From an uncultured Deinococcales bacterium (GTDB lineage: Bacteria > Deinococcota > Deinococci > Deinococcales > JAAFIG01), in contig CAXTKV010000021.1 of NCBI GenBank assembly GCA_964244895.1, positions 1-38,705 of the forward strand: a stretch of 38,705 bases of DNA, given 5' to 3'. The notes under the pieces are model-generated. The model worked only from the letters and a program-made list of their open reading frames with translations, searched no databases and was not told the DNA's origin. Numbering within the stretch: position 1 is the first letter of the stretch; every line of letters starts with the position of its first letter. Below, piece by piece: positions 289 to 38,082 of the stretch. The position numbers and the translations under genes were made by a program.

Positions 289-346
289 AAAGACCGTCCA
301 GAACGCCTCTTTTCAATCTCGAGAAACCCCGTCCTGGACGGTCTTT
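289..346. repeat. Palindromic repeat family copy (paired inverted arms, CTCGAG in spacer)
   Basis: AAAGACCGTCCAGAACG ... CGTCCTGGACGGTCTTT. Confidence 0.85.
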
Positions 347-365
347 ATAAAAGGGAGAACCCAGA

Positions 366-1520
366 ATGAGCCAGACCGAAAGCCTGTCCACGCCGCACGG
401 CGGCGCGCTGATCAACCGGCTGACCAAAGCCGACCCGAATACCTTCGCGCACCTGCCGAAGCTCGAGCTCTCTGACCGCAACCTGGCCGACCTGGAACTG
501 ATCGCCACGGGCGTGTACTCGCCGCTGACGGGCTTTTTGGGGCAGGCCGATTATGAAAGCGTGGTCGAACGGATGCGCCTGGCGGACGGCACCCCGTGGA
601 GCGTCCCGATCACGCTGGGCGTGTCCCCCGACGACGCGCCGCGCTACCAGGGCGAGGTCGCGCTGACCCACGGCGGGCAGATTGTCGGCACATTGAGCGT
701 GACCGAGCACTACGCGCCCGACCGGCAACGCGAGGCGCTCGAGGTCTACCGCACCGCGGACGCCGCCCACCCCGGCGTGGCGGCGCTCTACGCGCAGGGT
801 GCCATCAACCTGGCCGGGCCGGTGACGCTGTTTCAAGTCTCGCGCGGCGAATTCCCCAACCACCACCTGACGCCCGCCGAAACCCGCGAGGCCTTCAAGG
901 CGCGCGGCTGGCGCACGGTCGTGGCCTTCCAGACGCGCAACCCGATCCACCGCGCCCACGAATACCTGCACAAGGTCGCCCTGGAGACGATCGACGGCCT
1001 GTTTTTGAACCCGCTCGTGGGCAGCACCAAATCCGACGACGTGCCCGCCGCCACGCGGATGCGCGCCTACGAGGTGCTGCTCGAAAACTACTATCCGGCC
1101 TCGCGCGTGCTGCTGGGTTCTTATCCCGCCGCGATGCGCTACGCTGGCCCGCGCGAGGCGATCCTGCACGCGATCTCTCGCAAGAATTACGGTTGCACGC
1201 ACTTCATCGTCGGGCGCGATCACGCGGGCGTGGGCAATTACTACGGAACCTACGACGCGCAGCAAATTTTTGACGCGTACACGCCCGAAGAACTCGGCAT
1301 CGAGATCATCAAGTTCGAGCACACCTTCCACTGCAAAACCTGCGGTTCGATCGTCTCCAGCCGCACTTGCCCGCACGACTCGAGCCACCACCTGGTGCTG
1401 TCCGGCACGAAGGTTCGTGAACTGCTGTCCAGGGGCGATCACCTGCCCGCCGAATTCACCCGACCGGAAGTCGCCGAAGTGCTGCGCGAGGCGTACCGGG
1501 CCGCGCTCATACCGGTCTGA
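366..1520 (+). CDS. sat: Sulfate adenylyltransferase (ATP sulfurylase)
   Basis: [25 protein letters not shown] and VGRDHAG motifs; Zn site CKTC...CPH; SD AAGGGAG. Confidence 0.97.
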
Positions 1521-1532
1521 AGGGCAGGAATC

Positions 1533-1874
1533 GTGTTGATCGAAGCCGACAAAACCCAACAACCTGCCCTCGAGGGCAGCGACACGAGCGCACCCGCGAT
1601 GGAATCTGCGCTGGCTCGGGTCTACAACCTCGGTCTGGGCGTCGGCGCGGGCGTGTTCGTGATCGGCCTGCTGTTGAGCGCGTTCGGTCTGGTCGCGCCG
1701 TGGGTTTTCTGGGTGGGCATCGGCGCGCTGACCCTGGTTCCCGGCGTGGCCGCCGCGCAATCCGCCCTGAACGCCAGGCGCGCGGGTGACGCGGAAATTG
1801 TTCGTTCGATCCTGCTGACCGCCGCCGCACTCCTCTCGGCGGTCGTGCTGGGTTTGATCCTCTCGAGGCGCTGA
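1533..1874 (+). CDS. Small membrane protein (DUF1634-like, tentative)
   Basis: 113 aa, three hydrophobic segments, inside the sulfur operon. Confidence 0.6.
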   Translation: MLIEADKTQQPALEGSDTSAPAMESALARVYNLGLGVGAGVFVIGLLLSAFGLVAPWVFWVGIGALTLVPGVAAAQSALNARRAGDAEIVRSILLTAAALLSAVVLGLILSRR

Positions 1875-1926
1875 TTCGCGATTTGTCCCTCGGGCACAAG
1901 GCTCGAGTTTGAAAGGAAGGAACGAC

Positions 1927-2382
1927 ATGACCACCGCTGTCCAAACCCCCGCCATCAGAACCCTCGACCCGAACGCGCTGCGCTTCAACCAGATCTGCAT
2001 CGTCGGCGGCATCGCGCTGGCCGCTCTTTTTGGGCAGTGGTGGATCGTCGCGGCCATCGGAGCCGTGATGGTCGCCGGAACCTGGAACTCGAGCCTGGCG
2101 GTTTTCAAACGCGTCTACGCCAGCATCGTCCGGCCCGCACTGAAGATTCCCGCCCATCCCATCGAGGATGACCCACGGGCGCACAACTTCGCGCAGGGTG
2201 TCGGCGGTGCGTTCCTGACCCTCGCCACGCTGGCTTTCGTGCTTCACGCGCCGATCCTGGGCTGGGTGCTGTCCGCCATCGTGGTCGCGCTGGCGCTGCT
2301 GAACCTGACCACCGGCGTGTGCGTGGGCTGCTTCATGTACTTTCAGTTGCGTTTGCTGCAACACCGTCTGCGCCGCGCCTGA
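1927..2382 (+). CDS. DUF4395 family membrane protein
   Basis: [23 protein letters not shown] and C-terminal [12 protein letters not shown] at 1927 after SD AAGGAAGG. Confidence 0.8.
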
Positions 2383-2477
2383 AGGTTAGGCTCGAGGGCG
2401 CAAGCCTCACCCCTTCGGCCATTCATCCCAAGCCATCTTTCATGCCGTCCGAAACGGTGTTCTCAAGGAGGAATCCC

Positions 2478-3332: not shown

Positions 3333-3350
3333 GCGAGGTCTCTGGTGAGA

Positions 3351-3395
3351 ACACCGTCCCAGACGAGAATTGTGAAACATCGTCTGGGACGGTGT
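3351..3395. repeat. Palindromic repeat family copy (perfect 16-bp inverted arms)
   Basis: ACACCGTCCCAGACGA ... TCGTCTGGGACGGTGT. Confidence 0.88.
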
Positions 3396-3538
3396 CCTTT
3401 GAGTACCCTCCGACGTGTTCGCCCTCGGGTAAAGACGATGGCTCGAGCCTCAGATCATGTATTCGCACGAGAATGCCCGGACATCTCGAGATCACCGCTT
3501 TCCGGCTCGAGATCGCCTTCTGATCCCCTCATCCCGCG

Positions 3539-5140: not shown

Positions 5141-5286
5141 TGTCCGATCCCCACGCGCTCGAGAACGGTTGTGCGGCTCAGAAACACCGTCTGGCACGGT
5201 ATTCTCTATTCGCGTGCTGGACGGTGTTCCTTGAAGCGCACCGACCGCTCGAGATCCCGCTACCCACCCGGAAACCCCGCCCGTGA
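5140..5286 (+). CDS. Putative 48-aa bridge ORF spanning a palindromic repeat
   Basis: ATG overlaps the hemD stop (TGATG) with SD AAAGGAAG; its TGA overlaps the GTG of the next gene (GTGA). Confidence 0.4.
   Translation: MSDPHALENGCAAQKHRLARYSLFACWTVFLEAHRPLEIPLPTRKPRP
5181..5230. repeat. Palindromic repeat family copy
   Basis: GAAACACCGTCTGGCACGGTATTCTC ... CGTGCTGGACGGTGTTCC. Confidence 0.8.
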
Positions 5287-6023: not shown

Positions 6024-6784
6024 GCGCGCCCGGTCAGGTCTGGATCGTCGGCGCTGGCCCCGGCGATCCAGACCTGCTGACCGTCAAGGCCGCGCGGGTG
6101 CTCGAGTCTGCGGACGTGGTGCTCTACGACCGGCTGGTCGGCGCGGGCGTGCTGGAACTGATCCCGCCAACCGCAGAGCGCGTCTACGTCGGTAAGGGCC
6201 ACGGCGATCAGGACAGCGTTCAACCCGAAATCATGACGCAACTCGAGCACCATGCGCGCTCGGGCAAACGCACCGTGCGCCTCAAGGGCGGCGACCCGTT
6301 CGTCTTCGGGCGCGGCGCGGAGGAATGGGCGTACCTGAGCGCGCGCGGCGTGCAAGTCCAGGTCGTGCCCGGCATCAGTTCCAGCCTGGCGGTGCCATCG
6401 CTGGCCGGGATTCCGTTGACCTTTCGCGCCGTGGCTCGAGCCTTCGCGGTCGTGACCGGGCACCGCGCCATCGACCCGGACGCGGGTGCGCCGCCCGACT
6501 GGGCCGATTGCGCCCGCGTGGACACGCTGGTCGTGCTGATGGGCGTCGGTGAGCGCGCCAGCATCGCCAGCGCGTTGATCGCGGCGGGCCGCGACCCGGA
6601 TGAACCCTGTGCCTTCATCGAGCGCGGCACGACCCCGCACGAGCGCGTGATCGTCTCGAGCCTGGGACTCGTCAGCGACGGCCTGGTGGACGTGGAAGCC
6701 CCCGCCGTCTGGGTCATCGGTCGCGTGGTCGGCCTGCGCGAGACGTTGATCCCACCGGAACACCGTCCGGAACGCGAATCATGA
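6020..6784 (+). CDS. cobA: Uroporphyrinogen-III C-methyltransferase
   Basis: VWIVGAGPGDPDLLT, VVLYDRLV, VRLKGGDPFVFGRGAEE, VPGISS; GTG 6020 overlaps the upstream stop. Confidence 0.95.
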   Translation: MSAPGQVWIVGAGPGDPDLLTVKAARVLESADVVLYDRLVGAGVLELIPPTAERVYVGKGHGDQDSVQPEIMTQLEHHARSGKRTVRLKGGDPFVFGRGAEEWAYLSARGVQVQVVPGISSSLAVPSLAGIPLTFRAVARAFAVVTGHRAIDPDAGAPPDWADCARVDTLVVLMGVGERASIASALIAAGRDPDEPCAFIERGTTPHERVIVSSLGLVSDGLVDVEAPAVWVIGRVVGLRETLIPPEHRPERES

Positions 6785-6806
6785 ATGTCGTCCAGTACGG
6801 TGTTCT
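6758..6806. repeat. Palindromic repeat family copy overlapping the cobA 3' end
   Basis: GAACACCGTCCGGAACG ... CGTCCAGTACGGTGTTC. Confidence 0.8.
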
Positions 6807-9428: not shown

Positions 9429-9491
9429 AGAAACACCGTCCCAGACGGTGTTTCTCGGGATTCAAGATCATGCGTCCTGGACGGTGTTCTT
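9429..9491. repeat. Palindromic repeat family copy between convergent genes (possible terminator)
   Basis: AGAAACACCGTC-CCA-GACGGTGTTTCT hairpin plus GCGTCCTGGACGGTGTTCTT. Confidence 0.88.
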
Positions 9492-9503
9492 GAGCAGAAA
9501 TTT

Positions 9504-10338: not shown

Positions 10339-10399
10339 AAGAAAACACCGTCCAGCACGCCGTTTTTTGATGCTCAGGAATCGTGCGCTGGACGGTCTT
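10339..10399. repeat. Palindromic repeat family copy
   Basis: AAGAAAACACCGTCCAGCACGC ... GCGCTGGACGGTCTT. Confidence 0.78.
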
Positions 10400-10754
10400 A
10401 TTTTTTGGTCGGGCTGAGAATCATGATTTCGTCGATGAATTCCTCGAGCATGGTCGGCATCCTGACCGGGTTGAGCATCAGGTCGAGCGCCGCGAACACG
10501 TCGGGATCGCAGTCGGCCACGAAACGGTAGCGGTGTGATCCGTCCGATTTGCGCAGTGAAGCGAGCTTGCGGACTTCCAACGGGAAGTCCACCACGATCG
10601 TCAGCGTGCCGTGCCCGCGCGCGATGCGCTCGTTGTTTTGCAGCATGAATTCGCCGTGCACCTCGCCCTTCAGGGGATCGAGCGAGGTGATTTGACCATC
10701 CACCACCCAGTAAGTGACGGTGTCGGCGCGAATTGAAGAACCGTTCAACCTCAT
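10398..10754 (-). CDS. Hypothetical protein (start uncertain, ORF open to 10826)
   Basis: Protein-like composition; no motif recognised. Confidence 0.55.
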   Translation of the reverse strand: MRLNGSSIRADTVTYWVVDGQITSLDPLKGEVHGEFMLQNNERIARGHGTLTIVVDFPLEVRKLASLRKSDGSHRYRFVADCDPDVFAALDLMLNPVRMPTMLEEFIDEIMILSPTKK

Positions 10755-11480: not shown

Positions 11481-11493
11481 CGCGTGCGCGCCC

Positions 11494-11523
11494 AAGAATA
11501 CCGTTCAGAACGGTTTTCTTTTC
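11494..11523. terminator. Repeat-family hairpin between convergent genes, probable terminator
   Basis: AAGAATACCGTTC-A-GAACGGTTTTCTT followed by T-rich run. Confidence 0.6.
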
Positions 11524-13990: not shown

Positions 13991-13999
13991 CTTTTTAGG

Positions 14000-14055
14000 A
14001 ACACCGTCCTGGACGCTGAATTCTGAGGCTCGAGACATGCGTCCAGGACGGTGTT
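14000..14055. repeat. Palindromic repeat family copy (perfect 17-bp inverted arms)
   Basis: AACACCGTCCTGGACGC ... GCGTCCAGGACGGTGTT with CTCGAG in spacer. Confidence 0.9.
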
Positions 14056-14146
14056 ATCGCGGCGGTTCCCTTGGTTAGCGCAGTCGGGAACTCGAGTCTG
14101 TACCTTTCGTCAGGATCATCCCGGAGATGCCCTAGAATCGAGTGGA

Positions 14147-15073: not shown

Positions 15074-15237
15074 GGCCTGGAGTATACGGTGGCGGCTCGA
15101 GCGGGTCGTTTCTTTCTCGAGAAGACCGTGTCAGACGTTGTTACCGCGCCGAAAGCACAAAATAAAGCGTCCTGGACGAATTTTTCGTCGCTCCAAAAAC
15201 GATCTGGAGCCCGATTCCGGTTTCTGGGGCGCGTTTT

Positions 15238-16599: not shown

Positions 16600-16664
16600 G
16601 AGAAAACACCGTCCAGGACGGTGTTTTCTCGAGGTTCAGGATTTGCGTGTAGGACGGTGTTCTT
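16600..16664. repeat. Palindromic repeat family copy (31-bp palindrome plus third arm)
   Basis: GAGAAAACACCGTCC-A-GGACGGTGTTTTCTC ... GCGTGTAGGACGGTGTTCTT. Confidence 0.9.
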
Positions 16665-16679
16665 GCTTATGGCCCGCTT

Positions 16680-17621
16680 CTAAAACGAGCGGTCTCGAAT
16701 ATGCCCGAGTGAAACGCGGTTCGAGCTGCGGGTGTTGTAGCGCCAGCGCTTTTGCCATGTCGCCGATGTCTTTCCCGTCACCAGCGCTGCGCCGAGCAGA
16801 ATCACGCCGCAGGACAAGACTTTTTCGAGGGTGATCGCTTCGTGCAGCAGAAGGGCGCCCCAGGCGACACCAAAAACCGGAACCAGCAACCCGACGACCG
16901 ATGTGCGCGACGCGCCCAACGTCACCACGAGCGGCAGGAACAGCAGGTAGGCCAGCGCCGTGCAGGCCAGCGCCAACGCCAGCAGGCATGCGATCACGAT
17001 CGTGTCCGGTGCCGAACGGATCGGGTTCCACGGTGCGAGCGGCGCGAGGCTGAGGCTCGAGGTCAGGAGCGCTCCGGTCACCATCCCGATGGGTGGTGCG
17101 CCCTGGAGTTTTGCTTTGGTGATGTTCGCGGCCAGCCCGTAAGAGAACGCGGCCAGGAGCAGGGCCAGCACCGAGAGAACCGTGTTCAACCCAGGTTCGA
17201 GCGGACTCCAGCCCACCAGCAACGCGACGCCCAGAATGCCGAGCGCGAGGCCAGCAAAACGCCGCAGGGTGAACGCGTCACCGAACCAGAGCGCCGCGAT
17301 CAGCACCGTCCAGAACGAAACGGTCGCGTTCAGAATGGCCGACATCGAAGCGCTCAACGTCAGTTCCGCGAACGAGATCAGCACGAATGGGAGGCCGCTG
17401 TTGAGCAAACCCACCAGCGCGATCCAGCCTCCAAAGCGCGACCACTCGAGCCGTCGGCGTGCGACCAGCGCGTACGCGAGTAGCATCCCGCCACCGATGG
17501 TCACGCGCAGGAAAGCCGTCATGACCGGACCAAGCACGGGTGAAGTCACGCGCATGAAGATGAAACTGAATCCCCACAGGGCTGCGACCAAGAGCAACTG
17601 GAGTGCGTGAATGGGTTTCAT
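16680..17621 (-). CDS. DMT/EamA family transporter
   Basis: About 10 TMs; ALWGFSFIFMR, NSGLPFVLISFAE, SAILNAT, PVFGVAWGALLLHE. Confidence 0.9.
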   Translation of the reverse strand: MKPIHALQLLLVAALWGFSFIFMRVTSPVLGPVMTAFLRVTIGGGMLLAYALVARRRLEWSRFGGWIALVGLLNSGLPFVLISFAELTLSASMSAILNATVSFWTVLIAALWFGDAFTLRRFAGLALGILGVALLVGWSPLEPGLNTVLSVLALLLAAFSYGLAANITKAKLQGAPPIGMVTGALLTSSLSLAPLAPWNPIRSAPDTIVIACLLALALACTALAYLLFLPLVVTLGASRTSVVGLLVPVFGVAWGALLLHEAITLEKVLSCGVILLGAALVTGKTSATWQKRWRYNTRSSNRVSLGHIRDRSF

Positions 17622-18139: not shown

Positions 18140-19606
18140 ATGATTGATCCCAAGAGCAAGATGGAACTCGATCTGGACGTGTCGGGTTCCGCGCCAATCT
18201 ATCGTCAGATTTACAGCAGCATCGCTCAGGCGGTGTTGGATGGGCGGCTCGCTTCAGGAACGCGCCTCCCTTCGGCCCGAAGCCTTGCAGCTCAACTTTC
18301 GGTAGCTCGAGGAACGGTCGAGATGGCCTACCACCTCTTGGCGGGCGAGGGCTACATTCTGGCCCGTGGTGCGGCGGGGACACGGGTTCGTGCGGGTCTC
18401 AAACGGGCATTGCTCCAGGCTGGCGCCGAGGCTCGATTCAATCGGGAGAACCTACAACTCGAGCATTCGGATACCTTCACCCCGTCGGGAGTGTTCCAGA
18501 TGGGTATTCCGGCGCTCGATTCGTTTCCGCAATCGATCTGGTCGCGCCTTTTATCCCAACAGGCGCGAAAAACGAATCCAACAGACCTGGCGTACCCGCA
18601 CCCGGCGGGTCTCGAGATGTTGCGGGTTCAGGTCGCGGGCTACTTGGCCGTGGCTCGAGGCATCGCCTGCGCGCCAGACGACATCTTGATCACGAACGGT
18701 TATCAGGGCGCACTGGGTTTGATCGCCCATCGCCTGCTTCACCCTGAGGATCGGGTCTGGATGGAAGACCCCGGCTACCCGGATAGTCGGGATGCCATGC
18801 GGCTCGCGGGGGTGAAGGTGATCGGGATGGCGGTAGATCGAAACGGACTCGACGTGCAGCGAGCAATCTCGAGAAACCGTCCTGCGCGGATCGTCATGGT
18901 CACGCCGACACACCACTATCCGACGGGGGTGACGCTCTCGCTCTCGAGACGGATCGAACTGTTGAAGTGGGCTACAGAACATGATGCGTGGATCGTCGAG
19001 GACGATTACGACAGCGAATTCCGGTATCAGGGAAAGCCCGTTCCGGCGCTCAAAAGCCTGGATCGCCACGACTGCGTCGTGTATGCGGGGACGTTCAGTA
19101 AGGTGCTCTCTCCGAGCCTTCGGGTGGGGTATCTGGTGGTTCCGCCGAAGCTCAAACAAGGCCTATGGGAGACCGCCGCGCTTCTCGCGCCACCGCCTCC
19201 CGTGATTGTGCAGGCCACCATCGCAGCCTTTCTCGAGGAGGGTCATTTCGGTCGTCACATCCGACGAATGCGGGCACGGTACGCCGAACGACGAACCGCA
19301 CTCATCCGGGCGTTAGGGCAGGTGAGTTTTGGCCTCAGTATTGAACTTCAACCCGGCGGAATGCACCTGCTGGGGCGGCTACCCAGGGGCACGGACGATG
19401 TTGGCCTCGTTGCGCATTTGAAACTTCAGGGTTTTCGTCCGACCTCGCTCTCCGGTTGCGGGGTCGAAGCCCCTTACAAACCTGGGTTGTTGCTGGGATT
19501 CACCAATGTGGATTCCCGCGATGCATCGGAAGTCGCACGACGTTTGGCAGATGCGGTAAAGGGTTTCTTGGGTGCTAGAATCTCGCGTTCAGGACGGTCT
19601 TCTTAA
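18140..19606 (+). CDS. MocR/GabR-family GntR regulator with PLP domain
   Basis: PIYRQIY...RLPSARSLAAQLSVARGTV, EDPGY, WIVEDDYDSEFRY, GTFSKVLSPSLRVGY; divergent from the CMD/EamA genes. Confidence 0.93.
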   Translation: MIDPKSKMELDLDVSGSAPIYRQIYSSIAQAVLDGRLASGTRLPSARSLAAQLSVARGTVEMAYHLLAGEGYILARGAAGTRVRAGLKRALLQAGAEARFNRENLQLEHSDTFTPSGVFQMGIPALDSFPQSIWSRLLSQQARKTNPTDLAYPHPAGLEMLRVQVAGYLAVARGIACAPDDILITNGYQGALGLIAHRLLHPEDRVWMEDPGYPDSRDAMRLAGVKVIGMAVDRNGLDVQRAISRNRPARIVMVTPTHHYPTGVTLSLSRRIELLKWATEHDAWIVEDDYDSEFRYQGKPVPALKSLDRHDCVVYAGTFSKVLSPSLRVGYLVVPPKLKQGLWETAALLAPPPPVIVQATIAAFLEEGHFGRHIRRMRARYAERRTALIRALGQVSFGLSIELQPGGMHLLGRLPRGTDDVGLVAHLKLQGFRPTSLSGCGVEAPYKPGLLLGFTNVDSRDASEVARRLADAVKGFLGARISRSGRSS

Positions 19607-20596: not shown

Positions 20597-20630
20597 ATAG
20601 GCTGATGGCGTACTCGAGACAGATCCTCAG

Positions 20631-20689
20631 GAGACCGTCCTGGACACACTTCTCGAGCAACCGAGGTTCGTGTGCTGGACGGTGGTCTC
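20631..20689. repeat. Palindromic repeat family copy
   Basis: GAGACCGTCCTGGACAC ... GTGTGCTGGACGGTGGTCTC. Confidence 0.75.
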
Positions 20690-20743
20690 GATTCGCCAAC
20701 AGGCTTCGCCATTTCGCCTAAAACAGAATCTGCCCCGAACGGT

Positions 20744-20755: not shown

Positions 20756-23527
20756 ATGAGCCAGCCGAATCTTTTCGAGCCCGACGACCAGCCGGACTCG
20801 GGCGAACCGAACTCGACCCCGGCGCAGACGGCCTCGACCGCAGCGGCCACCAACGAGCCCGAGGAAACCGTCGAGGACGAACGCGGCATCCCACCGGCCT
20901 CCGAGACCGTCGAATTCATTCACCGCGCCCCGAAATCGGATGGCGTCATGCCCAAACGCGTGGTGCTGATCGACGGTCACGCCCTGGCCTACCGTTCGTA
21001 CTTCGCGCTCTCTCGAGGGCCGACGACGATGATGACATCGAAGGGCGAACCGACCCAGGCCATATTTGGCTTCATGAAAACGCTGATGAAATTGCTGCGC
21101 GACGGCGGGGATTCGAGCAAGAAGAAGATTCCCGCCATGGCGCTTTCGGATGCCAGGGATCACGCCGTGATCGTGGTCTTCGACCCACCCGTCAAAACCT
21201 TTCGCCACGAAGCCTTCGCGGATTACAAGGCGGGCCGCGCCCAGACGCCGGACGACCTGCCGGAGCAGATCAGAAAGATCAAGCGCCTGGTGGATTTGAT
21301 GGGTCTGGTGCGGCTCGAGGTCGGCGGGTTCGAGGCCGACGACGTGATCGGCACGCTCGCCCGGCGCGCCGAGGAAGCGGGAGCGGAGGTGCGCATCCTG
21401 ACCAGCGACCGCGACGCGTACCAGTTGCTTTCGGATCGGGTGCGCGTGATCGGCAGCGATAACGCGGAAATCGCGCCCGCCGATGTCAAGGCCAAGTACG
21501 GTGTGACGGTCGAGCAATGGGTCGATTACCGCTCCTTGACCGGGGATTCCAGCGACAACATTCCGGGAGCGAAAGGGATCGGGCCGAAGGGCGCGCAGAA
21601 GCTGCTGGAAACCTACGGCAGTTTGCAGTACATCCTGGATCACCTCGACGAGATCAAGCCCGAAAAGGACGCCCAAAAAATTCGGGACAGCTATGAAAAC
21701 GTGATCTTCAGCAAGGAACTTTCCAGGATCGTGACGCACGTCGACCTGGACGTGGATTTCACCACCGCCAAGGTTCACGAACCCGATGTCGAGGCGCTCA
21801 AGGCCCTGCTGCGCGAACTCGAGTTCAACAGTTTCGTCAGGGAACTCGGGCTGGAATCGGGCAGCGACCCCCTGACGCCAGCCAGACCCGTCCTCCAGAT
21901 CGAGCGCGCAGACTGGATCAATCCCGACGCGAACGCGATCTACGGTTTCGTGCTTTCAGAAGACAACCCGGTCGGGGCTCAAATCACGGGATTGGCCTAC
22001 GCCGACCCGCGCGCGAACTGGAGCGTTCGGGAATCGCCCGCCCCAAGCTTGGAATCTATCGGTGAAAACACCGTGCTGCACGGTGCGGATGCCAAAGCGC
22101 TGGCGGTGCACGCGATTTCTTGGGGCATGAAGGTAGAGCCCGGCGACGACCCGATCTTGATGGCGTACTGCCTCGATCCCAACACGGCGGAACCCGCGCG
22201 AGCCGCCCAGCGTTACCTCGAGACGGACTGGCCCAAGGACGCCGCGGGCCGCGCCAGCGTGGGCGCGAGACTGTTGCAGGAACTGCCGAAGCTGATGGCT
22301 CCAGAAATCAGGTCGCTCTACGACGATCTCGAGAAACCCACGGCGGTCGTGCTCGCCAAAATAGAGGCGCACGGCATCCTGATCGACGCGCCGTTCTTCA
22401 AGGGATTGTCGGACGCGATGGGCGCGCGAATCCAGGCGCTCGAGCATGAGGTCTGGGGGCTGGCGGGCGAGGAATTCAACCTGAACAGCCGCGACAAGCT
22501 CGAGGCATTGTTGTACGACAAACTCCAGCTCGCGTCCGGCAAGAAAACGAAACTGACCGGCAAGCGTTCGACCGCGGTCAGCGAACTGGAAAAGTTGCGC
22601 GACGAGCACCCGATCATCCCGAAAATCCTCGAGTACCGCGAGATCGCCAAGTTGCGCGGCACGTACCTCGATCCGTTGCCGATGCTGGTCAACCCCAGAA
22701 CGGGACGTTTGCACACGACCTTCTCGCAGACGGTCGCGGCCACGGGCCGGTTGTCCAGCATCAACCCGAACCTGCAGAACATTCCGGTGCGCACCGAGAT
22801 GGGGCGCGAGATCCGCAAGGGCTTCATCGCCGCGCCGGGTTGCAAGCTCCTGAGCGCCGATTACAGCCAGATCGAATTGCGGATTCTGGCGCACATCACC
22901 GAAGAACCCGCGCTGATCGAGGGCTTCAAGAACGATGAGGACATTCACCGCCGCACCGCCGCCACGATCCTGAACATCCCCCTGGAATCCGTCACCAGCG
23001 ACCAGCGCCGGGGCGCGAAGACCATCAATTACGGCGTGCTGTACGGCATGAGCGCCCACCGGCTGGCCAACGACATGGGCATGCCCTATGAAGATGCCAA
23101 GGGCTTCATCGAGCGTTACTTCGGCGCGTATCCGGGCATCACGAAATACCTGGAAGACACCAAGGAATTCTGCCGCAAGAACGGCTACGTGCAGGACTTG
23201 TTCGGGCGGCGACGGTACATGCCTGAAATCAACGCCAAAGCCTTCCCCGTCCGCGAGGCCGCCGAGCGCGCCGCGATCAACATGCCGATCCAGGGAACCT
23301 CTGCGGGCATCATCAAGCGCGCCATGATCGACCTCGATCCGTTGCTGGGGCCATCCGGTGCGCGGTTGCTGTTGCAGGTTCACGACGAACTGGTGGTCGA
23401 ATGCCCGCATGATCACGTCGAAGCGGTCAGCAAGATCCTGTGCGCCACGATGGAGAACGCCTTCCCGCTGAGGGTTCCCTTGGGCGTCGAGGTCGGCGCT
23501 GGCGCGACCTGGTACGACGCGCACTGA
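20756..23527 (+). CDS. polA: DNA polymerase I (Taq-type, degenerate 3'-5' exonuclease)
   Basis: VLIDGHALAYRSY, YKAGR, FEADDVIG, GDSSDNIPG, ATGRLSSINPNLQNIP, ADYSQIELR, AKTINYG, QVHDEL. Confidence 0.97.
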   Translation: MSQPNLFEPDDQPDSGEPNSTPAQTASTAAATNEPEETVEDERGIPPASETVEFIHRAPKSDGVMPKRVVLIDGHALAYRSYFALSRGPTTMMTSKGEPTQAIFGFMKTLMKLLRDGGDSSKKKIPAMALSDARDHAVIVVFDPPVKTFRHEAFADYKAGRAQTPDDLPEQIRKIKRLVDLMGLVRLEVGGFEADDVIGTLARRAEEAGAEVRILTSDRDAYQLLSDRVRVIGSDNAEIAPADVKAKYGVTVEQWVDYRSLTGDSSDNIPGAKGIGPKGAQKLLETYGSLQYILDHLDEIKPEKDAQKIRDSYENVIFSKELSRIVTHVDLDVDFTTAKVHEPDVEALKALLRELEFNSFVRELGLESGSDPLTPARPVLQIERADWINPDANAIYGFVLSEDNPVGAQITGLAYADPRANWSVRESPAPSLESIGENTVLHGADAKALAVHAISWGMKVEPGDDPILMAYCLDPNTAEPARAAQRYLETDWPKDAAGRASVGARLLQELPKLMAPEIRSLYDDLEKPTAVVLAKIEAHGILIDAPFFKGLSDAMGARIQALEHEVWGLAGEEFNLNSRDKLEALLYDKLQLASGKKTKLTGKRSTAVSELEKLRDEHPIIPKILEYREIAKLRGTYLDPLPMLVNPRTGRLHTTFSQTVAATGRLSSINPNLQNIPVRTEMGREIRKGFIAAPGCKLLSADYSQIELRILAHITEEPALIEGFKNDEDIHRRTAATILNIPLESVTSDQRRGAKTINYGVLYGMSAHRLANDMGMPYEDAKGFIERYFGAYPGITKYLEDTKEFCRKNGYVQDLFGRRRYMPEINAKAFPVREAAERAAINMPIQGTSAGIIKRAMIDLDPLLGPSGARLLLQVHDELVVECPHDHVEAVSKILCATMENAFPLRVPLGVEVGAGATWYDAH

Positions 23528-23536: not shown

Positions 23537-23585
23537 AAAGACCGTCCTGGACGCACGGCGAAATGTGCGTCCAGGACGGTGTTTT
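23537..23585. repeat. Palindromic repeat family copy after polA (perfect 16-bp arms)
   Basis: ACCGTCCTGGACGCAC ... GTGCGTCCAGGACGGT. Confidence 0.9.
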
Positions 23586-25554: not shown

Positions 25555-25570
25555 ATTTCAGACAACACTG

Positions 25571-25649
25571 TTCTTGCTCGAAAGACAGCACCTATCGGGC
25601 TACTCGCGCTTCTTGCTCGAAAGACAGCACCTATCGGGCTACTCGCGCT
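25571..25649 (+). repeat. 2 x 39-bp perfect tandem duplication
   Basis: TTCTTGCTCGAAAGACAGCACCTATCGGGCTACTCGCGC twice. Confidence 0.92.
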
Positions 25650-25674
25650 CCAGCACGCAAATTCCTTCGTCTCG

Positions 25675-25699
25675 AGAACACCGTCCAGGACGGTGTTCT
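25675..25699. repeat. Palindromic repeat family copy
   Basis: AGAACACCGTCC-A-GGACGGTGTTCT. Confidence 0.9.
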
Positions 25700-27160: not shown

Positions 27161-27294
27161 GGGCCACGGGCCGCAGGTCACAGGTCACGAGTCAGACCCG
27201 AGCGCACCGTTCTGAACGCGTCCTCGAGATCGCGTCCGGAACGGTGTTCTCGAGTTTTCCCCTTTTACCTTTGCCCTTTCCCCTCTCTCCATGA
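27157..27294 (+). CDS. Putative 45-aa bridge ORF spanning a palindromic repeat
   Basis: GTG overlaps the glmM stop (GTGA); its TGA overlaps the rbfA ATG (ATGA); rbfA has no SD. Confidence 0.4.
   Translation: MRATGRRSQVTSQTRAHRSERVLEIASGTVFSSFPLLPLPFPLSP
27205..27251. repeat. Palindromic repeat family copy
   Basis: CACCGTTCTGAACGCG ... CGCGTCCGGAACGGTG with CTCGAG in spacer. Confidence 0.8.
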
Positions 27295-27590
27295 GCCAGC
27301 GCACCGCGCAGGTCGAAGCCAGCATCGGGCGCGCGCTTTCCGGCGCGATCCACGAATTGCACGATCCCAGATTGCCGATCATCGTGACCGTCGAACGCGT
27401 CAGGATCAGCCCGGACTTGCTGCACGCGAAAGTGTTTATTTCCAGCATCGGGGACACCGTGCAGGCTGTGGCTGCGCTCGATCACGCCAAGGGTTACCTG
27501 CAACGCCAGATCGCGGGCGAACTGAAGCTCAAGCGCACGCCCCTGCTCGAGTTTCACCCGGTCGGCGACGACCCGATGGGGATATTGTGA
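27291..27590 (+). CDS. rbfA: Ribosome-binding factor A
   Basis: LHDPRL, VTVERVRISPDLLHAKVFIS, LDHAKGYLQRQIA..LKLKRTPLLEF. Confidence 0.92.
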   Translation: MSQRTAQVEASIGRALSGAIHELHDPRLPIIVTVERVRISPDLLHAKVFISSIGDTVQAVAALDHAKGYLQRQIAGELKLKRTPLLEFHPVGDDPMGIL

Positions 27591-27723
27591 CGGTCGTTCC
27601 CGGCACATCTATAACCGTGACGGTCGTTCCCGGCACATCTATAACCGTGACGGTCGTTCCCGGCCCATCGAGGACACTGTGACGGTCGTTCCCGGCACAT
27701 TGGGGACACTGTGATGGTCGTTC
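27587..27723 (+). repeat. Tandem array (30,30,32,32 bp plus a partial unit) at the rbfA/thioesterase junction
   Basis: Each unit begins GTGA(C/T)GGTCGTTC. Confidence 0.92.
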
Positions 27724-28121
27724 GCCAATCCCAGATTCGGTTTCGCGTGCGTTACGCGGAGACGGATGCGATGGGCATCGCGCACCACAGCAATTACGTG
27801 ATCTGGTTCGAGATGGGCCGGGTCGCGTTCATGGATGACCTGGGCGTGCCGTACCGAGAGGTCGAGAAGCGCGGCGTGCTGCTGGTCGTGACCAACGTCA
27901 GCCTGAAGTACCGTCGGCCCGCCGTGTTCGACGACGAGATCGTGCTGACGACGCGATTGGGTGCGCTCAAATCCCGGTTGGTGCGTTTCGAGTACGCGGT
28001 CGAACGCGCCTCCGATTCCGCTCTCTTGGCCGAAGGGTTCACCGAGCACATCGCGACCGATCTGGAAAAGCGCACCGTGCCGATCCCGCAGTACCTGCGC
28101 GAGGCCCTCGAGGCAGAGTAA
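27711..28121 (+). CDS. YbgC/FadM-family acyl-CoA thioesterase (4HBT hotdog fold)
   Basis: RVRYAETDAMGIAHHSNYVIWFEMGR, YRRPAVFDD. Confidence 0.92.
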   Translation: MMVVRQSQIRFRVRYAETDAMGIAHHSNYVIWFEMGRVAFMDDLGVPYREVEKRGVLLVVTNVSLKYRRPAVFDDEIVLTTRLGALKSRLVRFEYAVERASDSALLAEGFTEHIATDLEKRTVPIPQYLREALEAE

Positions 28122-28489
28122 GTCGTCCCACACGCATTCTCGAGGCCGCGTACTCGACGGCGTTCTCAGGATGAGCCATGGCTCAAGATCGCTTCGGGGT
28201 CGTTCCAGGCGGCCATCTCGAGGGCGCAGCGCGTTTCGGGTCGGCGCATACCGACTTCCGGCAGCCAAAGGTGCTACACTCATGCTCGTTAGGCCCGGTC
28301 TGGGCTGCCCGAACGCCACTCGAGATCGCCCCATCCGCGCGAAGCGATCCGAGGAACAACCAAAACGGCGTGCAGTCCGACTCGAGGCGTGAACACCCCC
28401 GAGCGTGATCTTGTCATTAGCCCTGAGCCCACAAGACAATCCACGCGAACGCGACGCACGAAACCCGGTGCGCGCGGTTTGGAGTTTGA

Positions 28490-29848: not shown

Positions 29849-32800
29849 ATGCCCAAGAAGGCGTCCGAACCGAAGACCGCCGAGGCCAAGAGCCGACGGC
29901 GCAACAAGAAACCCCCGACCCAGACGCCACTTCCGCTTGCCGCAGAGCAAGCGCGCAAGCGCGGGCGTCCAAAAAAGACCGTCGCGGACGCGGCACAGAA
30001 AACACCGTCCCAGACGGTGTCCCCGAAGCAAATCAAACCAACCTCGAGCCAGCCGAGCGCCGAGACTCGAGGGCGTAAAGCGAAGAACACCGTCCAGCAC
30101 GTGAAACAAGAAGCACCGCCCGCGACGGTGCCCGCGAGCGCTGCACCCTCAAGCGCTGCACCGTCTCGAGAAGCGCGGGGTGCGGGCGTCGGCAGGAAAC
30201 GCGCCCGCAAGCAGGGTGCGACCGAGGACGCGGCGGTCGTGACCCTGCTGGGTGACATCCACCAGCCCACGGACATGCTCGAGACCGCCATCCAGCAGGA
30301 CGTGGAACCCGAAACCGACGAACGCGCCAAGCCCGAAACGGGTAGCGCGAACGGTTCAGCCGTGCGCGTGCGCCGCGCCAACCGCGAGAACATCTTCGAG
30401 GCGCAAGTCAAACCGCTCGATCCGATTGAAGCGCTCCTGGAATTCTTTCGCGCCAACCCGAAGCCGCAGCAGGCGCGGGATTTGCTGAAGCTCCTGCCCA
30501 GCATCGACGTGGAGCGCCTGGGCGGTCGCAAGGGCCTGGAAAGCACGCTGGATCGGCTGGTGCGCGAGGGCCAACTGGCGCAACCCAAGCGTCACACCTA
30601 TGCGCTGCCCAAGGAAACCGCCGTGGTCGTCGGGCGCTTCGATGCGCGCGGCTACCGCTTCGGATTCGTCGTGCCGGAGACGCCCGGCTTGCCCGACCTG
30701 TTCGTCGGGCCGGAAGGCATGTTCTACGCCTGGCACAACGACCGCGTGGTGGCGCGGGTCGAACGCAAGAAGGGTGAAGACACGCCGCGCGGCAAGATCA
30801 TCCGCATCCTGGAGCGCAAACGCGAGAGCATCGTCGGCACGCTGGAATTCTCGAAGGGCTACGCGATCCTGCGACCCGACGAGACGCGCCTGCCGCGCAC
30901 GGTGCTGATGCCGACAGGCACAGAAAACCTGCGCGCGGGCGCGCGCGTGGCCGTCAAACTGTTCTGGCCGGAATTGACCGGTGAGGACGAACCCTACGGC
31001 GAGATCACCGAAGTCCTGGGTTTCGAGGATTCCCCGGAGGTCGAAACCCGCGCCGTGATCGCCAAGTTCGAGCTGCACGACGCGTTCCCGCCGGAAGTCG
31101 TGGCGGAGGCCGAACGCATCCCGCTCGAGATTCCCGAATCCGCGCTGGAAGGCCGCAGCGACCTGCGCGCCAAACGGATCTTCACCATCGACGGCAAGGA
31201 CGCCAAGGATTTCGACGACGCGATTCACATCGAACCCCTCCAGAACGGTCATTTCCTGGTCGGGGTTCACGTCGCGGATGTCTCGCATTACGTGATTGAA
31301 GGCGGCGCGCTCGATGTCGAAGCCAGGGCTCGAGCCACCAGCGTCTACCTGCCCGGCAAGGTGCTGCCGATGCTGCCCGAGCGCCTTTCAAACGGCGTCT
31401 GTTCGCTCGTGCCCGGCGAGGACAGGCTGGCGCTGTCGGTGCTGGTGGAACTGAGCGCGGATGGCGACGTGGAGAATTACGCCATCGTCAACAGCGTGAT
31501 TCACTCCAAGGCGCGACTGACCTACGACGAGGTTCAGGCGTTTAGTGAGGCCAAATCCGCCATGCCCGACCACGCGCGCGATCTCGAGGGCGATCTGCAC
31601 CTGCTCTTGAAGCTCACGACCCGCATGCGCGAAAAGCGCTTCCGCGAGGGCAGCCTGGATTTCCGCCTCAAAGAAGTCAAGGTCGACATCGAACCGGACG
31701 GCTCGTTGACGCTGATTCCCGTGCGCGAGGAAACCGCGCGAGGATTGATCGAAGACCTGATGCTGACGGCCAACAAACTGGTCGCCAACCACCTGCACAG
31801 CCGCGAGATTCCCGCGCTCTACCGCATCCACGAGGAACCCTCGCCGCAGCGCTTTCTTGAGGTCGTGGCGAACCTCGCGAAGCTGTCCATCACCGTGCCG
31901 GGCGGCAAACCCACACCGCAGGCGTACCAGGAGATCCTGGCGAACGTGCGCGGCACGCCCCTCGAAAGCCCCGTCAACACGCTCTTGCTGCGCTCCATGC
32001 GGCAGGCCAAATATTCGTCTGAAAACAAGGGCCACTTCGGCCTGGCATTTTCCGATTACCTGCACTTCACCAGCCCGATCCGGCGCTACCCAGACCTGAT
32101 CGTTCACCGCGTGCTGAAAGCCTTCATCGCCCGCAAGATGGGCGCCAAACGCCGCGAGGTGCTGGCCGCGACGCTCCCCGAATTGGGCGATCACACCTCC
32201 AACCGCGAGCGCAACGCCTCCGATGCGGAACGCGACCTGACGAAGTACTACCAGGCGCGCTGGGCGCAGGCGCGCGTCGGGCAGGTGTTCAAGGCGCACG
32301 TCTCGAGCATCACGGCCTTCGGGATGTTCGTGATGCTGGACAATGGCGTCGAAGGGCTGATCGGACTGAGCGCCCTGAATGACGACCATTACACGCTGGT
32401 CGAGGATGGAACGGTCTTGCGCGGACGCGCGGGCCGACAGTACAAGCTGGGCACGCCGATTCGCGTGCAAATCGCGGGCGCGAACCCGGTCGCCCGGCAG
32501 ATCGATTTTGTGAAGGAGTTCGATATGAACGGTAAAAACAGCGGCAAGCGCCCCCAGCAGGGGCGCGGCCCGAAACAGAGCAGTCCCCAACCCCAGCAAC
32601 GCGCTGGAACCGCCAAAAGCACGGACGCCAGACGCGTGGTCGTGCTCTCGGGACGCCCCAAGCCGGAACACGCCCGGCCCGTCAAGGTCACGGCCCGCAA
32701 GTTGTACTTCGGCGAGTGGACGCGCGCCCACATGGGCGAAGAACCCGCTGACGCCCGCAATCAGGCTCAGCAGCGCCCGTCTGAGCGCCCACAAGCCCCG

Positions 32801-33142: not shown

Positions 33143-33146
33143 CCTC

Positions 33147-33203
33147 AAAAAGACCGTCCAGGACGGTCTTTTTTGTTTCTCGAGATTCGCGTGCTGGACG
33201 GTG
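33147..33203. terminator. Repeat-family palindrome with A/T tails, probable bidirectional terminator
   Basis: AAAAAGACCGTCC-A-GGACGGTCTTTTTT right after the rnr stop, plus third arm GCGTGCTGGACGGTG. Confidence 0.75.
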
Positions 33204-33233
33204 CTCCCAAAAGCGCATTCTTAAGAAATGCGT

Positions 33234-33386: not shown

Positions 33387-33619
33387 GCCGTTGGTGTAGC
33401 ACGGCGGCGAGCACCGGAACCTGACACCCGATTCGGGCTGATCGGGTAATCGGTTTAGGTATCCCCTCGAGCATCCAGATAAGGCGTCTGGGACGCTATT
33501 CCAGAATCTCGTCTCACGATGTGACGATTCACCCATTGATGAGGACGGTGAGGTCTTACAATCGCAACGTTTGAAGCGGGGCATCTGTCCCGAAACCGAA
33601 ATTGACATTGGGGGCAAAC

Positions 33620-33865: not shown

Positions 33866-33869
33866 AGGG

Positions 33870-33970
33870 CACCGTCCAGCACGGTCGTTTGAACATGCGT
33901 GCTGAACGGTGTCCTCTAGCCTGATCGAACTCGAGTACGGCTCGAATCTTCGAGAATACCGTCCAGTGCG
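33870..33970. repeat. Palindromic repeat family copies
   Basis: CACCGTCCAGCACGGT ... GCGTGCTGAACGGTGTCC; further arm GAATACCGTCCAGTGCG. Confidence 0.75.
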
Positions 33971-34043
33971 AGCCTCGAGAGATCACCTGGGATCACCCAG
34001 GCGCGGGCTGACAGCCTCGCCGCGCGTTGGTACACTCGTCCGC

Positions 34044-35501: not shown

Positions 35502-35631
35502 AATCATCGTCAGCGATGACGTTTTTGATGCGCCCCCCAAACCCGGAACGTGAATTCAGACGTGCTGGGCGGATCGTTTGCCGACTCATCACTCGCACGC
35601 CAGACATCTCGAAGACCCGCACCGAATCAGG

Positions 35632-35690
35632 AAGACCGTCCAGGACGGTCTTTTACGAAACACAAGAACACCGTCTGGTACGGTGTTCTT
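35632..35690. repeat. Two adjacent palindromic repeat family hairpins
   Basis: AAGACCGTCC-A-GGACGGTCTT and AAGAACACCGT-CTGGT-ACGGTGTTCTT. Confidence 0.88.
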
Positions 35691-35691
35691 C

Positions 35692-36630
35692 GTGAAGCGC
35701 ACGATCTACCCGGCGATCTCCAGGCTGGCGCACCGCGTTCTGAACGAACGCGAGGAACCCGTCGCACTCGAGGAACTGGCTCGCGCCATCGGTTTCCAGG
35801 GCGAGGCGCGCGCCCTGCCCAGGCTGCTCGATGGGCGTTTCAAGCAGGTTGGCACCAACCTGAGCCTGTGGGCCTGGGAACGCGATTTCCCCGCGCTGGG
35901 CGAAACCATCGTCGTGATCGACCTGGAAGCCACCGGTGGCCACCTGGAACGCGACGAACTGATCGACATCGGCGCGGTCAAACTGGGGCCGGAAGGCTAC
36001 GCCGAATTCGGCGCGCTGAACGACCCCAAACGCCCGATCCCGCCGTTCATCACCAAACTGACTGGCATCAGCCAACTGATGGTCAAGAACGCGCCACCGC
36101 TCGACGCCAGCCTGGAAAAACTCGCGCAATTCATCGAGGGTGCGACCATCGTGATTCAGGACGCGCATTTCGATGTCGCGTTTCTCGAGCCCAGATTTGC
36201 TAGATTGGGCTTCAAGTTGAACAACCCGCTGGTGGACACGATCAACCTCGCCAAACGAACGCTGCCAGGACGGCGTCGGCGCGGGCTCGACTCGCTCGCC
36301 GCGACGTATGGGGTTACAATCGAATCGCGCCACCGCGCGCTCGGCGATGCCAGAGCGACGCTGCACGTCACGCGAGAGCTGTACCACGCGCTGACCGCCG
36401 GAACACCCACCCGACTCAGCACGCTCCACGATCAGGTTACGCGCTTCCAACACGATCAGATTGCGCATCTCCAAGACGATCTGATGGCGCGCCCCAACAC
36501 CGACCAGACCCCTCGCACGCGAGGTTCGCGCGCTGAACAGCGACATCAACCCATGCATCCAACCGAACCGACCGACGACCCGCGCCTCGAGAGAGGTTCC
36601 AACACCAGCCAACCGGAGATTCCCGTATGA
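35692..36630 (+). CDS. DEDDh 3'-5' exonuclease (DnaQ/epsilon-like)
   Basis: VIDLEATG, IPPFITKLTGI, HFDVAFL, VDTINLA, HRALGDA; GTG 35692 chosen (ORF open from 35578). Confidence 0.88.
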   Translation: MKRTIYPAISRLAHRVLNEREEPVALEELARAIGFQGEARALPRLLDGRFKQVGTNLSLWAWERDFPALGETIVVIDLEATGGHLERDELIDIGAVKLGPEGYAEFGALNDPKRPIPPFITKLTGISQLMVKNAPPLDASLEKLAQFIEGATIVIQDAHFDVAFLEPRFARLGFKLNNPLVDTINLAKRTLPGRRRRGLDSLAATYGVTIESRHRALGDARATLHVTRELYHALTAGTPTRLSTLHDQVTRFQHDQIAHLQDDLMARPNTDQTPRTRGSRAEQRHQPMHPTEPTDDPRLERGSNTSQPEIPV

Positions 36631-38015
36631 GCCTCGAGAACATCGCGGGGCGCTACCGGTACATCCTGACCCGACCGTGCCTCGATTCCGGTTCGATCGC
36701 GGTGCTCAAATACCTCGAACGCGTCGTGCCGACCACCGGTTCCGTCGTGTTCGTCGGCGACGGCGGTGAGGAAATCACGCTGACCGCCGACCCGAAACAG
36801 CGCCGCCTGTACGGACTGGCCGACTACTACGCCAAGCACCGACTTCAGGTCAACGATGCGCTCTTGATCACCGTGCTGGCCGACCGACGCTTCGCGCTCG
36901 AGCGCGTGGTGCGCGTGCGCGACCCGAAAGCCGAACAAAAGCCGCGCCCCGCACCCCCGCCCAAACCCGAACGCATCATCCTCGAAGAAAGCCCGTACAT
37001 CCGCGAGGTGCGCACGCGCGAGATCAGCGTCTCGCCGTACCCCAAGGGCCTGATGTACCCGCAAGAACCCAAGGATGCCGAAAAGGCCGATGCCAGCGCC
37101 GCCCCCGACGCGCGCAAGGCCAAACCTGCCGAGGAAGCCCGCAGCACCCTGAAAAACCTGATCGCCCGCGACCGCGACCAGCGCGCCGCCGACGCGCCGC
37201 GCCGCGAACCCGTCCAGCCGACCATCGAACCCGCGCCACCGATCGTTCTCGAACGCGCCAGCGCAAGTATGGCCAGCGCAGCCAGCTCCGGCACGACCCT
37301 GGAGCGCACCCGCGCCGCCTTCATCGCGCTCGGCTACGCGGTGGACGTGATCGGCGAAGGCTTGATGCTCGAGGCCAAGCTCGGGCGGCGCGCGCACCGC
37401 ATCGCGCTGGCCGTGACCGAAGACCCCGATGAAGCCCGCACCATCATCGAGGCCGGACGCGGACAGGCCGCCAAATACCTGGCTGTGGCCGCCGATTCCA
37501 CCGCCCTGGAAGCCTTCCGGCAGCACCCGGACTTCGAGCACATCGCGCGCGCGGATCTGGCGACCATCGAAGCGCTCGCTGCGCTGACCAGGCTCTCGCC
37601 GGTCGGCCCGCTGGAACTCGAGGGTTACTGGAACGCCGGACGGCTGGACGCGGACGCCCTCGAATCCCTCGAGGCCGGTGTCAACACCAGCGTCGGTGCG
37701 CGGGGTGCGTTCTCGTTCGTGACGCTGTCCCTGGCGCGCTTCACCGCCCCCGGCATCGTCAACGCGCAGGACGTGATGGCCAGCATCGAAAGCGCTGGGA
37801 TCGGTTCCGGCATCGTGCTCGAGACGCTCGAATCCCTCTCCAAAGCGCCCTTCATGCTGCTCTCGCCCCTCGGCGGCGGTGAATACTACATGCGCCGCCC
37901 CGTCAGCGCCGCCCTGGAAGGCCTGTCCGAGTACGCGGGCGGTCTGCGCTCGAGGTTGCACGTCACGGCCAAAGTTGCCGCTCGGGCTGACAGCGCCGTC
38001 ACCGAAGCCAAGTAA
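36627..38015 (+). CDS. Hypothetical protein (two globular regions with a Pro/Ala/Glu linker)
   Basis: 462-aa ORF with typical codon usage, ATGA-coupled to the exonuclease. Confidence 0.8.
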   Translation: MSLENIAGRYRYILTRPCLDSGSIAVLKYLERVVPTTGSVVFVGDGGEEITLTADPKQRRLYGLADYYAKHRLQVNDALLITVLADRRFALERVVRVRDPKAEQKPRPAPPPKPERIILEESPYIREVRTREISVSPYPKGLMYPQEPKDAEKADASAAPDARKAKPAEEARSTLKNLIARDRDQRAADAPRREPVQPTIEPAPPIVLERASASMASAASSGTTLERTRAAFIALGYAVDVIGEGLMLEAKLGRRAHRIALAVTEDPDEARTIIEAGRGQAAKYLAVAADSTALEAFRQHPDFEHIARADLATIEALAALTRLSPVGPLELEGYWNAGRLDADALESLEAGVNTSVGARGAFSFVTLSLARFTAPGIVNAQDVMASIESAGIGSGIVLETLESLSKAPFMLLSPLGGGEYYMRRPVSAALEGLSEYAGGLRSRLHVTAKVAARADSAVTEAK

Positions 38016-38029
38016 AATGGCGTCTTCTC

Positions 38030-38082
38030 GAGAACACCGTTCCAGACAGCGTTCTTTTTCTTGCGTCTGAGACGGTGTTCTC
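38030..38082. repeat. Palindromic repeat family copy at the border of the low-GC segment
   Basis: GAGAACACCGTTCCAGAC ... GTCTGAGACGGTGTTCTC. Confidence 0.82.

Follow-up and report, generated by a model that had tools for sequence, protein, structure and literature searches.

The stretch of DNA analysed here (the window) is the 38,705-nucleotide contig CAXTKV010000021.1 (C21; assembly GCA_964244895.1) of an uncultured Deinococcales bacterium, and its core genes include sat, hemC, a sulfite reductase gene, nucS, polA, rnr and gatA. Recurring through it is a short palindrome, hereafter the arm, which occurs singly or as two inverted copies and is the subject of this work. A first-pass annotation, made from the letters of the window, had listed about 22 loci with the core ACCGT-N5-ACGGT, and we found the arm at 22 of 22; with a position weight matrix (PWM) we counted 44 arms in 27 loci of the window, 3 of which lie within called genes. 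The genome to which the window belongs (G000; 5.12 Mb in 328 contigs, 62.7% G+C, 91% complete) is the sole member of its own genus among the 19 genomes of its family. A PWM scan of this genome at a threshold of 14 bits gave 5,920 strand hits, as compared with 30 in the reversed genome, and these merge into 4,648 arms in 2,832 loci; the enrichment, whose absence beyond the window the annotation would have held against a mobile family, is therefore genome-wide.

The repeat is a real, lineage-specific and very large family. In particular, an exact 16-mer of the arm is present in 775 copies in G000 and in 0–1 copies in each of 60 relatives, and a strict paired pattern that matches 364 times in G000 has no match in any of the 363 other genomes of the phylum; scans of a wider collection of genome contigs with a strict pair pattern, and of viral contigs, also gave 0. 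A looser pair pattern matched at least two loci among the matches listed for the contig collection, both of them unrelated. Of 11 metagenome matches, 5 resemble the lineage of G000 and 6 do not; an alignable ortholog exists for four of the five lineage-like contigs, L075 being the one without, and the repeat is present in unplaced relatives, namely these five contigs and run X1. No analogous repeat of equal density was seen in 13–400-kb samples of 8 relatives' genomes. Similar perfect inverted arms also stand on two AT-rich metagenome contigs unrelated to G000 (L067:986-1025 and L072:2528-2575), where they are probably independent hairpins, each a single case. The family is probably distinct from the small repeats of D. 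radiodurans, given the zero counts in the genomes of the phylum. No description of the motif was found in the literature searched, which left out most subscription journals and supplements; automated counts of repetitive extragenic palindromes (REPs) exist for three Deinococcota, and the consulted part of that report contains no such motif (PMC12306157).

The arm consensus is GAACACCGTCCWGGACGGTGTTC, its start reads RRAACACCGT, and the consensus in full is palindromic over 23 bp and has 46 exact copies in the genome. In the window, ACCGT-N5-ACG was found 49 times on the two strands, whereas 200 shuffles gave 1.85 on average and never more than 8. The strict form, ACCGT-N5-ACGGT, was counted 11 times in the window and 554 times genome-wide, where all other gap lengths from 0 to 11 give 2–22 copies each. 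The annotation had described both ACCGT and ACGGT as fixed around a variable centre; this is borne out for the outer half, but the inner half is mostly ACGC, and 1,272 of the 4,648 arms score on both strands. Conservation is position-specific: with the partner arm called on four bases alone, core positions are 90–98% conserved and the centre base 42–58%, and no co-variation was detected between mirror positions within the arm. Copies at 0, 1, 2, 3 and 4 mismatches number 86, 225, 477, 760 and 948, so that no dominant master sequence emerges. As the annotation had stated, the GTAG end is absent: neither GTAG nor CGTC stands beyond the stem as a terminal tag. Rfam models gave 0 matches to the window.

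Geometry of the paired arms

Head-to-head doublets are the dominant arrangement, and the distance between their arms, which had been put at 8–30 nt, is far more restricted: in 1,569 of 1,722 two-arm loci, the centre-to-centre spacing is 25/26 or 35/36 bp (25 bp, 757; 26 bp, 120; 35 bp, 508; 36 bp, 184), with minor classes at 30/31, 34 and 41 bp. The two major classes are thus about one helical turn apart. A plain regular expression, used without the PWM, gave the same peaks. Moreover, the weak partners of 513 nominally single arms fall at 25, 26, 35, 36 and 41 bp (99, 18, 27, 6 and 13 cases), with at most 5 per distance elsewhere between 18 and 49 bp.

The spacers that separate the arms are AT-rich and nearly all unique, as are the whole elements (752 of 753 in the 25-bp class, 120 of 120 in the 26-bp class, 506 of 506 in the 35-bp class and 184 of 184 in the 36-bp class). 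Nearest-neighbour distances between spacers are about those of a second-order position model, and similar spacers barely predict similar arms. In none of the four classes do spacers fold better than chimeras (-6.63 versus -7.28 kcal/mol in the 25-bp class), and whole 25-bp elements do fold better than chimeras. Because mirror positions do not co-vary and spacers fold no better than chimeras, the arm appears to be read as sequence rather than as a hairpin.

The annotation had also remarked that paired arms often share the same central variant, and had read this as local copying. Sharing is evident in the 25-bp class (284 pairs versus 136.5 expected, n=753), where the central five bases are common to both arms twice as often as expected in most contexts, but is hardly above chance in the 35/36-bp class (75 versus 58.4, n=690), so that local copying can be upheld for the 25-bp class only. 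We infer that sharing in this class either reflects homogenisation of the DNA across the short loop or is a vestige of units having been copied. The hexamer CTCGAG, reported as frequent in the spacers, is present there but accompanies a lineage-wide excess: it occurs at 4.3/kb in G000 and at 4.6–7.5/kb in samples of 8 relatives (46–60% G+C) without the repeat, whereas other palindromic hexamers are mostly avoided in G000 and in relatives (L026-L065). This excess, of which the literature searched gave no description, resembles that of HIP1.

Placement, orthologous sites and neighbouring repeat families

Genes were called genome-wide with our own dicodon model (4,623 genes, 81% coding, start positions approximate). 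Loci occupy 489 of 644 convergent, 1,421 of 2,991 tandem and 352 of 660 divergent gaps, and only 280 of the 2,832 lie within called genes, about 90% being intergenic. They hug stop codons (peaks at -2 to +8) and avoid starts, with a median distance to the nearer stop of 9 bp where the genes converge and 28 bp where they lie in tandem; pairs of the 25-bp class account for 190 of 458 convergent loci versus 62 of 349 divergent loci. Gaps of 150–300 bp hold exactly one locus in 74–77% of cases and two or more in 2–6%, versus about 20% under a Poisson model, loci less than 80 bp apart having been merged, which lowers the number of doubles counted in short gaps. Overall there are 0.9 arms/kb, and the mean interval between loci is 1,534 bp (coefficient of variation 0.65). 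Contigs poor in the element are accessory by gene content: 7 of their 239 genes match the relative G006 (a comparison that covers 2.0 of the 5.1 Mb of G006), versus 654 of 3,194 genes on element-rich contigs. There is no T-run bias downstream of the loci (50 vs 60 of 520; 43 vs 41 of 413), and hence no sign of an intrinsic terminator. Orientation relative to transcription shows no preference in the 25-bp class (218/215) and a weak one in the other classes, there is no excess of loci at contig ends (94 vs 89), and loci with multiple arms pointed to no candidate regulator.

Orthologous sites were compared at five loci, four of them located through the motif itself. In all four alignable metagenome loci (77–84% nucleotide identity) an arm stands at the same place, and identical bases number 54 of 56 in the core, 25 of 35 in the centre, and 26 of 56 in the flank and inner positions. 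Spacings in three of these pairs are 26/25, 25/25 and 36/35; at the fourth locus a pair faces a single arm. The fifth comparison is with run X1 (one contig, depth 5.9; from a first alignment to this run we took piece boundaries alone), in which the pair at 13999 is kept and four spacer indels, net +1, give a spacing of 36 bp. The annotation had proposed comparing empty and filled sites; none of the five comparisons shows presence/absence polymorphism of a whole locus. Beside one orthologous pair, the relative carries a GTAG-type repeat that G000 lacks, and directly after the pair at 9431..9489, at 9490-9503 and before nucS, the run X1 contig has about 870 extra bases.

Sites within genes were examined against codon-preserving controls. 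At 20 bits, 88 hits were found in 2,538 genes, versus 6–23 in the controls. Among 87 strong in-gene singles, 33 have a covering homolog, and 31 of these 33, including the polA arm at 22066, are colinear with it. Head-to-head pairs within genes number 11, 6, 6 and 5 at 25, 26, 30 and 36 bp, with at most two at any other distance. The pairs in PheT and PurD show a net indel of zero relative to G006, as does the pair in NuoG, a protein that is 2–3 residues longer than in two other relatives; MurF, with 3–8 extra residues, belongs instead with the signs of insertion. One test gene had no homolog among 5 relatives, and the alignment of another was very poor.

The annotation had suggested looking for a REP-associated tyrosine transposase (RAYT) gene flanked by the best copies. 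The lone RAYT gene that we found (C12:40664-41187) has no arms in its flanking gaps; one GTAG repeat lies directly upstream of it and another inside its reading frame, and the gene belongs to a separate GTAG family. That family has about 100–165 pattern matches, paired stems (inner stems paired in 75 of 100 cases versus 19.9 when shuffled), repeated composites and a master word, with 19, 10, 9, 8 and 7 copies at 0–4 mismatches. The gene was identified by tblastn with relatives' proteins; profile searches of G000 account for one RAYT and no IS200-type match, and a Pfam search for the Y1 transposase matched in 16 of 18 relatives and gave 0 in G000. Because the PF01797 search of G000 missed the C12 gene, divergent HUH genes can be missed in this way. 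Inspected by eye, 29 intervals bounded by lone inward arms contained no recognised transposase and one integrase-like gene; of the two marks of a miniature inverted-repeat transposable element (MITE), target-site duplications and an autonomous partner with the same ends, neither was seen. The duplication search covered lengths of 2–5 bp at edges 9–17 and found no excess, although old copies may have lost such marks. A second small mobile hairpin, of 39-nt units, lies in arm cores: 40 of its 147 starts follow an arm fragment, and many of the remaining starts follow the hairpin itself. Since it inserts into the arm core, the arms predate these insertions. More small repeat families lie beside arms, and an intergenic word family of about 20 copies ending in GAGGATTGAAAC has the look of a CRISPR repeat.

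Loci in the window

The arms and pairs of the window are listed below; spacings are those between arm centres. An RDRM-type box (radiation/desiccation response motif) lies at 20712-20728, 44 bp before polA. Elsewhere in the window, four to five direct repeats of 30–32 nt lie downstream of rbfA (27587-27732), and 21-nt tandem repeats lie within a subtilisin-like gene (24141-24220).

Arms and arm pairs of the repeat in the 38,705-nucleotide window
Position	Strand	Feature
289..346		Pair, 35 bp, upstream of sulfate adenylyltransferase
2440..2462	-	Single arm before rhodanese-like gene
3349..3397		Pair, 26 bp
5182..5229		Pair, 25 bp
6758..6805		Pair, 25 bp, overlapping end of called upstream gene
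9431..9489		Pair, 36 bp, convergent gap adjoining nucS; within piece aligned to run X1 contig
10343..10400		Pair, 35 bp
11496..11518		Single symmetric arm
13999..14056		Pair, 35 bp; both arms kept in one run X1 contig
15121..15184		Pair, 41 bp, minor class
16604..16662		Pair, 36 bp
17301..17323	+	Weak match within a gene (14.7 bits), possibly by chance
19580..19602	-	Single arm
20630..20687		Pair, 35 bp, divergent gap between MarR-like gene and polA
20863..20885	+	Weak match in 5' part of polA (14.5 bits), possibly by chance
22066..22088	+	Single arm within polA, strong (26.3 bits); colinear with PolA of relatives, without an insertion
23537..23584		Pair, 25 bp, directly after polA stop
25563..25698		Pair, 35 bp; conserved core of left arm split by two tandem 39-nt hairpin units (25571-25648)
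25676-25698		Right arm of preceding pair, a perfect 23-bp palindrome
27202..27249		Arm 27227-27249 with weaker partner 25 bp to the left (partner read from sequence)
28118..28165		Degenerate pair, 25 bp, at stop codon (partner read from sequence)
29974..30022		Pair, 26 bp, upstream of RNase R match
30085..30133		Arm with weaker partner 26 bp to the right (read from sequence); absent from first list
33149..33206		Pair, 35 bp, directly after RNase R stop
33479..33501	-	Weak single arm; absent from first list
33867..33976		Pair, 25 bp, with third arm 62 bp further
35631..35688		Two symmetric arms, 35 bp
38032..38080		Pair, 26 bp

Interpretation

The annotation had offered three readings of the repeat, namely a mobile element like REPINs or bacterial interspersed mosaic elements (BIMEs), a site for a dimeric nucleoid protein, and a DNA-uptake-type sequence. 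The protein-site reading fits best, given position-specific conservation, fixed spacing with a free spacer, arms kept at the orthologous places, and pairs colinear with the coding sequence of orthologs. We therefore give a probability of about 50% to the view that this is an old, partly insertion-seeded REP-like family that is maintained today as double sites in helical phase for a putative DNA-binding protein; the pairs are likely to be docking sites for such a protein and not actively jumping DNA. We infer from the patterns above that each arm would bind a dimer reading AACACCGT and ACG, and that two dimers would touch only when the centres are 25/26 or 35/36 bp apart (with 30/31 and 41 bp as minor alternatives). 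Contact at set distances is proposed as the reason why spacer length is fixed while spacer sequence drifts. Many copies would have been seeded by insertion, in the manner of a REP or a MITE, and some sites would have been made in place by substitution. The bound protein would organise the chromosome or manage topology at gene ends, which is the least supported step of the proposal and follows the analogy of E. coli BIMEs. In E. coli, gyrase, IHF and Pol I bind to REP and BIME sequences, and BIME linkers are conserved sequences; the present repeat resembles them as a gene-end repeat that likely serves as a protein platform, and differs in that its spacers are free in sequence and fixed in length. 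We class the repeat as one that works in the manner of a REP/BIME platform, and keep it apart from the RAYT-linked REPINs.

Several observations weigh against this reading. No candidate for the binding protein was found, although no genome-wide search for lineage-specific binders was made; the HU/IHF gene counts are unremarkable (3 in G000, 1–3 in 18 relatives). The REPINs of Pseudomonas fluorescens SBW25 also have discrete spacings, and spacing alone is therefore no proof of protein geometry. Among the strong in-gene hits, 10–30% are expected by chance. In CopA, 17 extra residues (51 bp) lie over a 25-bp pair relative to 6 of 6 homologs, and two further in-gene pairs lie in linkers that are 17 and 23 residues longer. 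Of 72 junctions that are tight in G006, 26 exceed their length there by 50 bp or more in G000, 19 of these with an element, whereas the reverse comparison gives 9 of 56 (p=0.016); the DNA added at such tight junctions, 62–365 bp, mostly exceeds one element. Arm co-variation in the 25-bp class extends to divergent gaps (20 versus 10.1 expected). Finally, because G000 is 91% complete and in 328 contigs, a transposase could be missing.

Many of these same points are what an ordinary REPIN-type element would leave behind, that is, a non-autonomous unit copied as a single-stranded hairpin by a lost or unassembled RAYT or HUH enzyme; we regard this as possible but doubtful. Published systems are compared here as they appear in the consulted parts of the sources cited. 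Net gain of DNA at tight junctions, the 51-bp insertion in CopA and arm co-variation in the 25-bp class all fit the insertion of units, the dominant head-to-head doublets hugging stop codons have the REPIN layout, and SBW25 REPINs share both discrete spacings (34–36, 41–43, 51–53 and 69–72) and unique spacers (PMC3337134), being likewise extragenic doublets of two inverted imperfect palindromes in which length is kept over spacer sequence. However, the SBW25 family has hundreds of loci rather than about 2,800, and the pairs described here run colinear with the coding sequence of orthologs. In REPINs the spacer folds into a hairpin and carries compensatory changes (PMC3116915), whereas the spacers here have no hairpin organisation; REPIN populations shrink once their RAYT is lost (10.1101/2021.07.10.451892), yet some 2,800 loci persist. 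Furthermore, the GTAG/CGTC terminal tag and a cognate RAYT are lacking, the lone RAYT being tied to GTAG repeats that behave as a REP should, the ACCGT family has no master word, and target-site duplications left no signal, though old copies would have lost it. The GTAG and CGTC superfamilies come close in other respects, with palindromes near 3' ends, dimers and some variable spacers of conserved length, and they include CGTC families without a dedicated transposase alongside known REP families without a tag (PMC3733652, the main text of which has 0 mentions of Deinococcus). By that description they differ from the present family in their unpaired terminal tag, CGTC lying inside the paired core here, and here half of the divergent gaps are occupied.

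Density and evenness could instead suggest a DNA uptake sequence (DUS) like that of Neisseria, or an uptake signal sequence (USS) like that of Haemophilus, accumulated through biased uptake and recombination, which we consider unlikely. The 0.9 arms/kb and the interval of about 1,534 bp are close to the 0.80–0.89/kb (PMC2817400) and roughly 1,500 nt (PMC2397512) of known uptake sequences, and depletion in accessory DNA, inverted pairs and in-gene sites without indels are shared with the DUS of Neisseria and the USS of Pasteurellaceae; a competence-domain gene is present in the genome. Known uptake sequences are, however, 34.5–65% coding (PMC2817400), as against 280 of 2,832 loci here, and tripeptides show little enrichment relative to G006 orthologs (ratios 0.9–1.3; NTV 43/47, TPS 51/52, KTV 67/54, DGV 126/95), not the doubling expected of uptake sequences. 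Uptake needs no more than a single DUS (PMC2397512), which would leave the strict geometry of the pairs unexplained; nor does overlap of the USS type explain the spacing, since no second AT-rich segment was found beside true single arms. The arm is a 23-bp palindrome rather than an asymmetric core of 9–12 bp, and its signs of net insertion sit poorly with an origin by substitution alone. An RNA-level element, in which 3'-end hairpins stop transcription or protect mRNA, is improbable: nearness to stops, the preference of 25-bp pairs for convergent gaps and the folding of whole 25-bp elements speak for it, but loci stand in 352 of 660 divergent gaps, T-runs show no bias, the 35/36-bp class has no pairing signal, and such hairpins would need neither one fixed sequence nor fixed loop lengths. 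Least probable is an expanded operator of DdrO. Like the RDRM consensus (PMC8533742), the arm is a 17-bp palindrome whose centre spans five bases, with CG in matching positions, and a box before a uvrC-like gene shares its CCGTCCAGG core; but the outer bases of the arm are AC or AG, not TT, the sites number thousands rather than the tens of the Deinococcus RDRM, and canonical TT..AA boxes coexist with the repeat in G000, with 42 matches in the whole genome, many of them preceding repair genes such as polA. Because these boxes survive, the repeat is not a displaced DdrO operator. The repair genes other than polA were named from their N-terminal sequences, and a putative DdrO-like gene adjoins a Peptidase_M78 gene.

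A bolder version of protein binding can be entertained only tentatively, namely that the repeat is a chromosome-wide address system in which a putative protein reads about 2,800 helically phased double sites, one in each gap between genes, and has a preference for them so strong that new pairs are built in conserved coding sequence. If true, the system would amount either to a novel nucleoid organiser with sequence specificity or to an independent, third signal for DNA uptake; we know of neither kind in this phylum. Whichever holds, the family bears on the role of REP-like repeats in their hosts and on the reasons for their persistence when no movement is visible. Within one genome, a normal RAYT-linked GTAG family stands beside a family about 30 times larger that follows different rules, that is, fixed helical spacing, an unpaired spacer, one locus per gap, and retention across species. 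The larger family would exemplify either the takeover of a repeat by a host protein or a new signal for uptake or nucleoid organisation.

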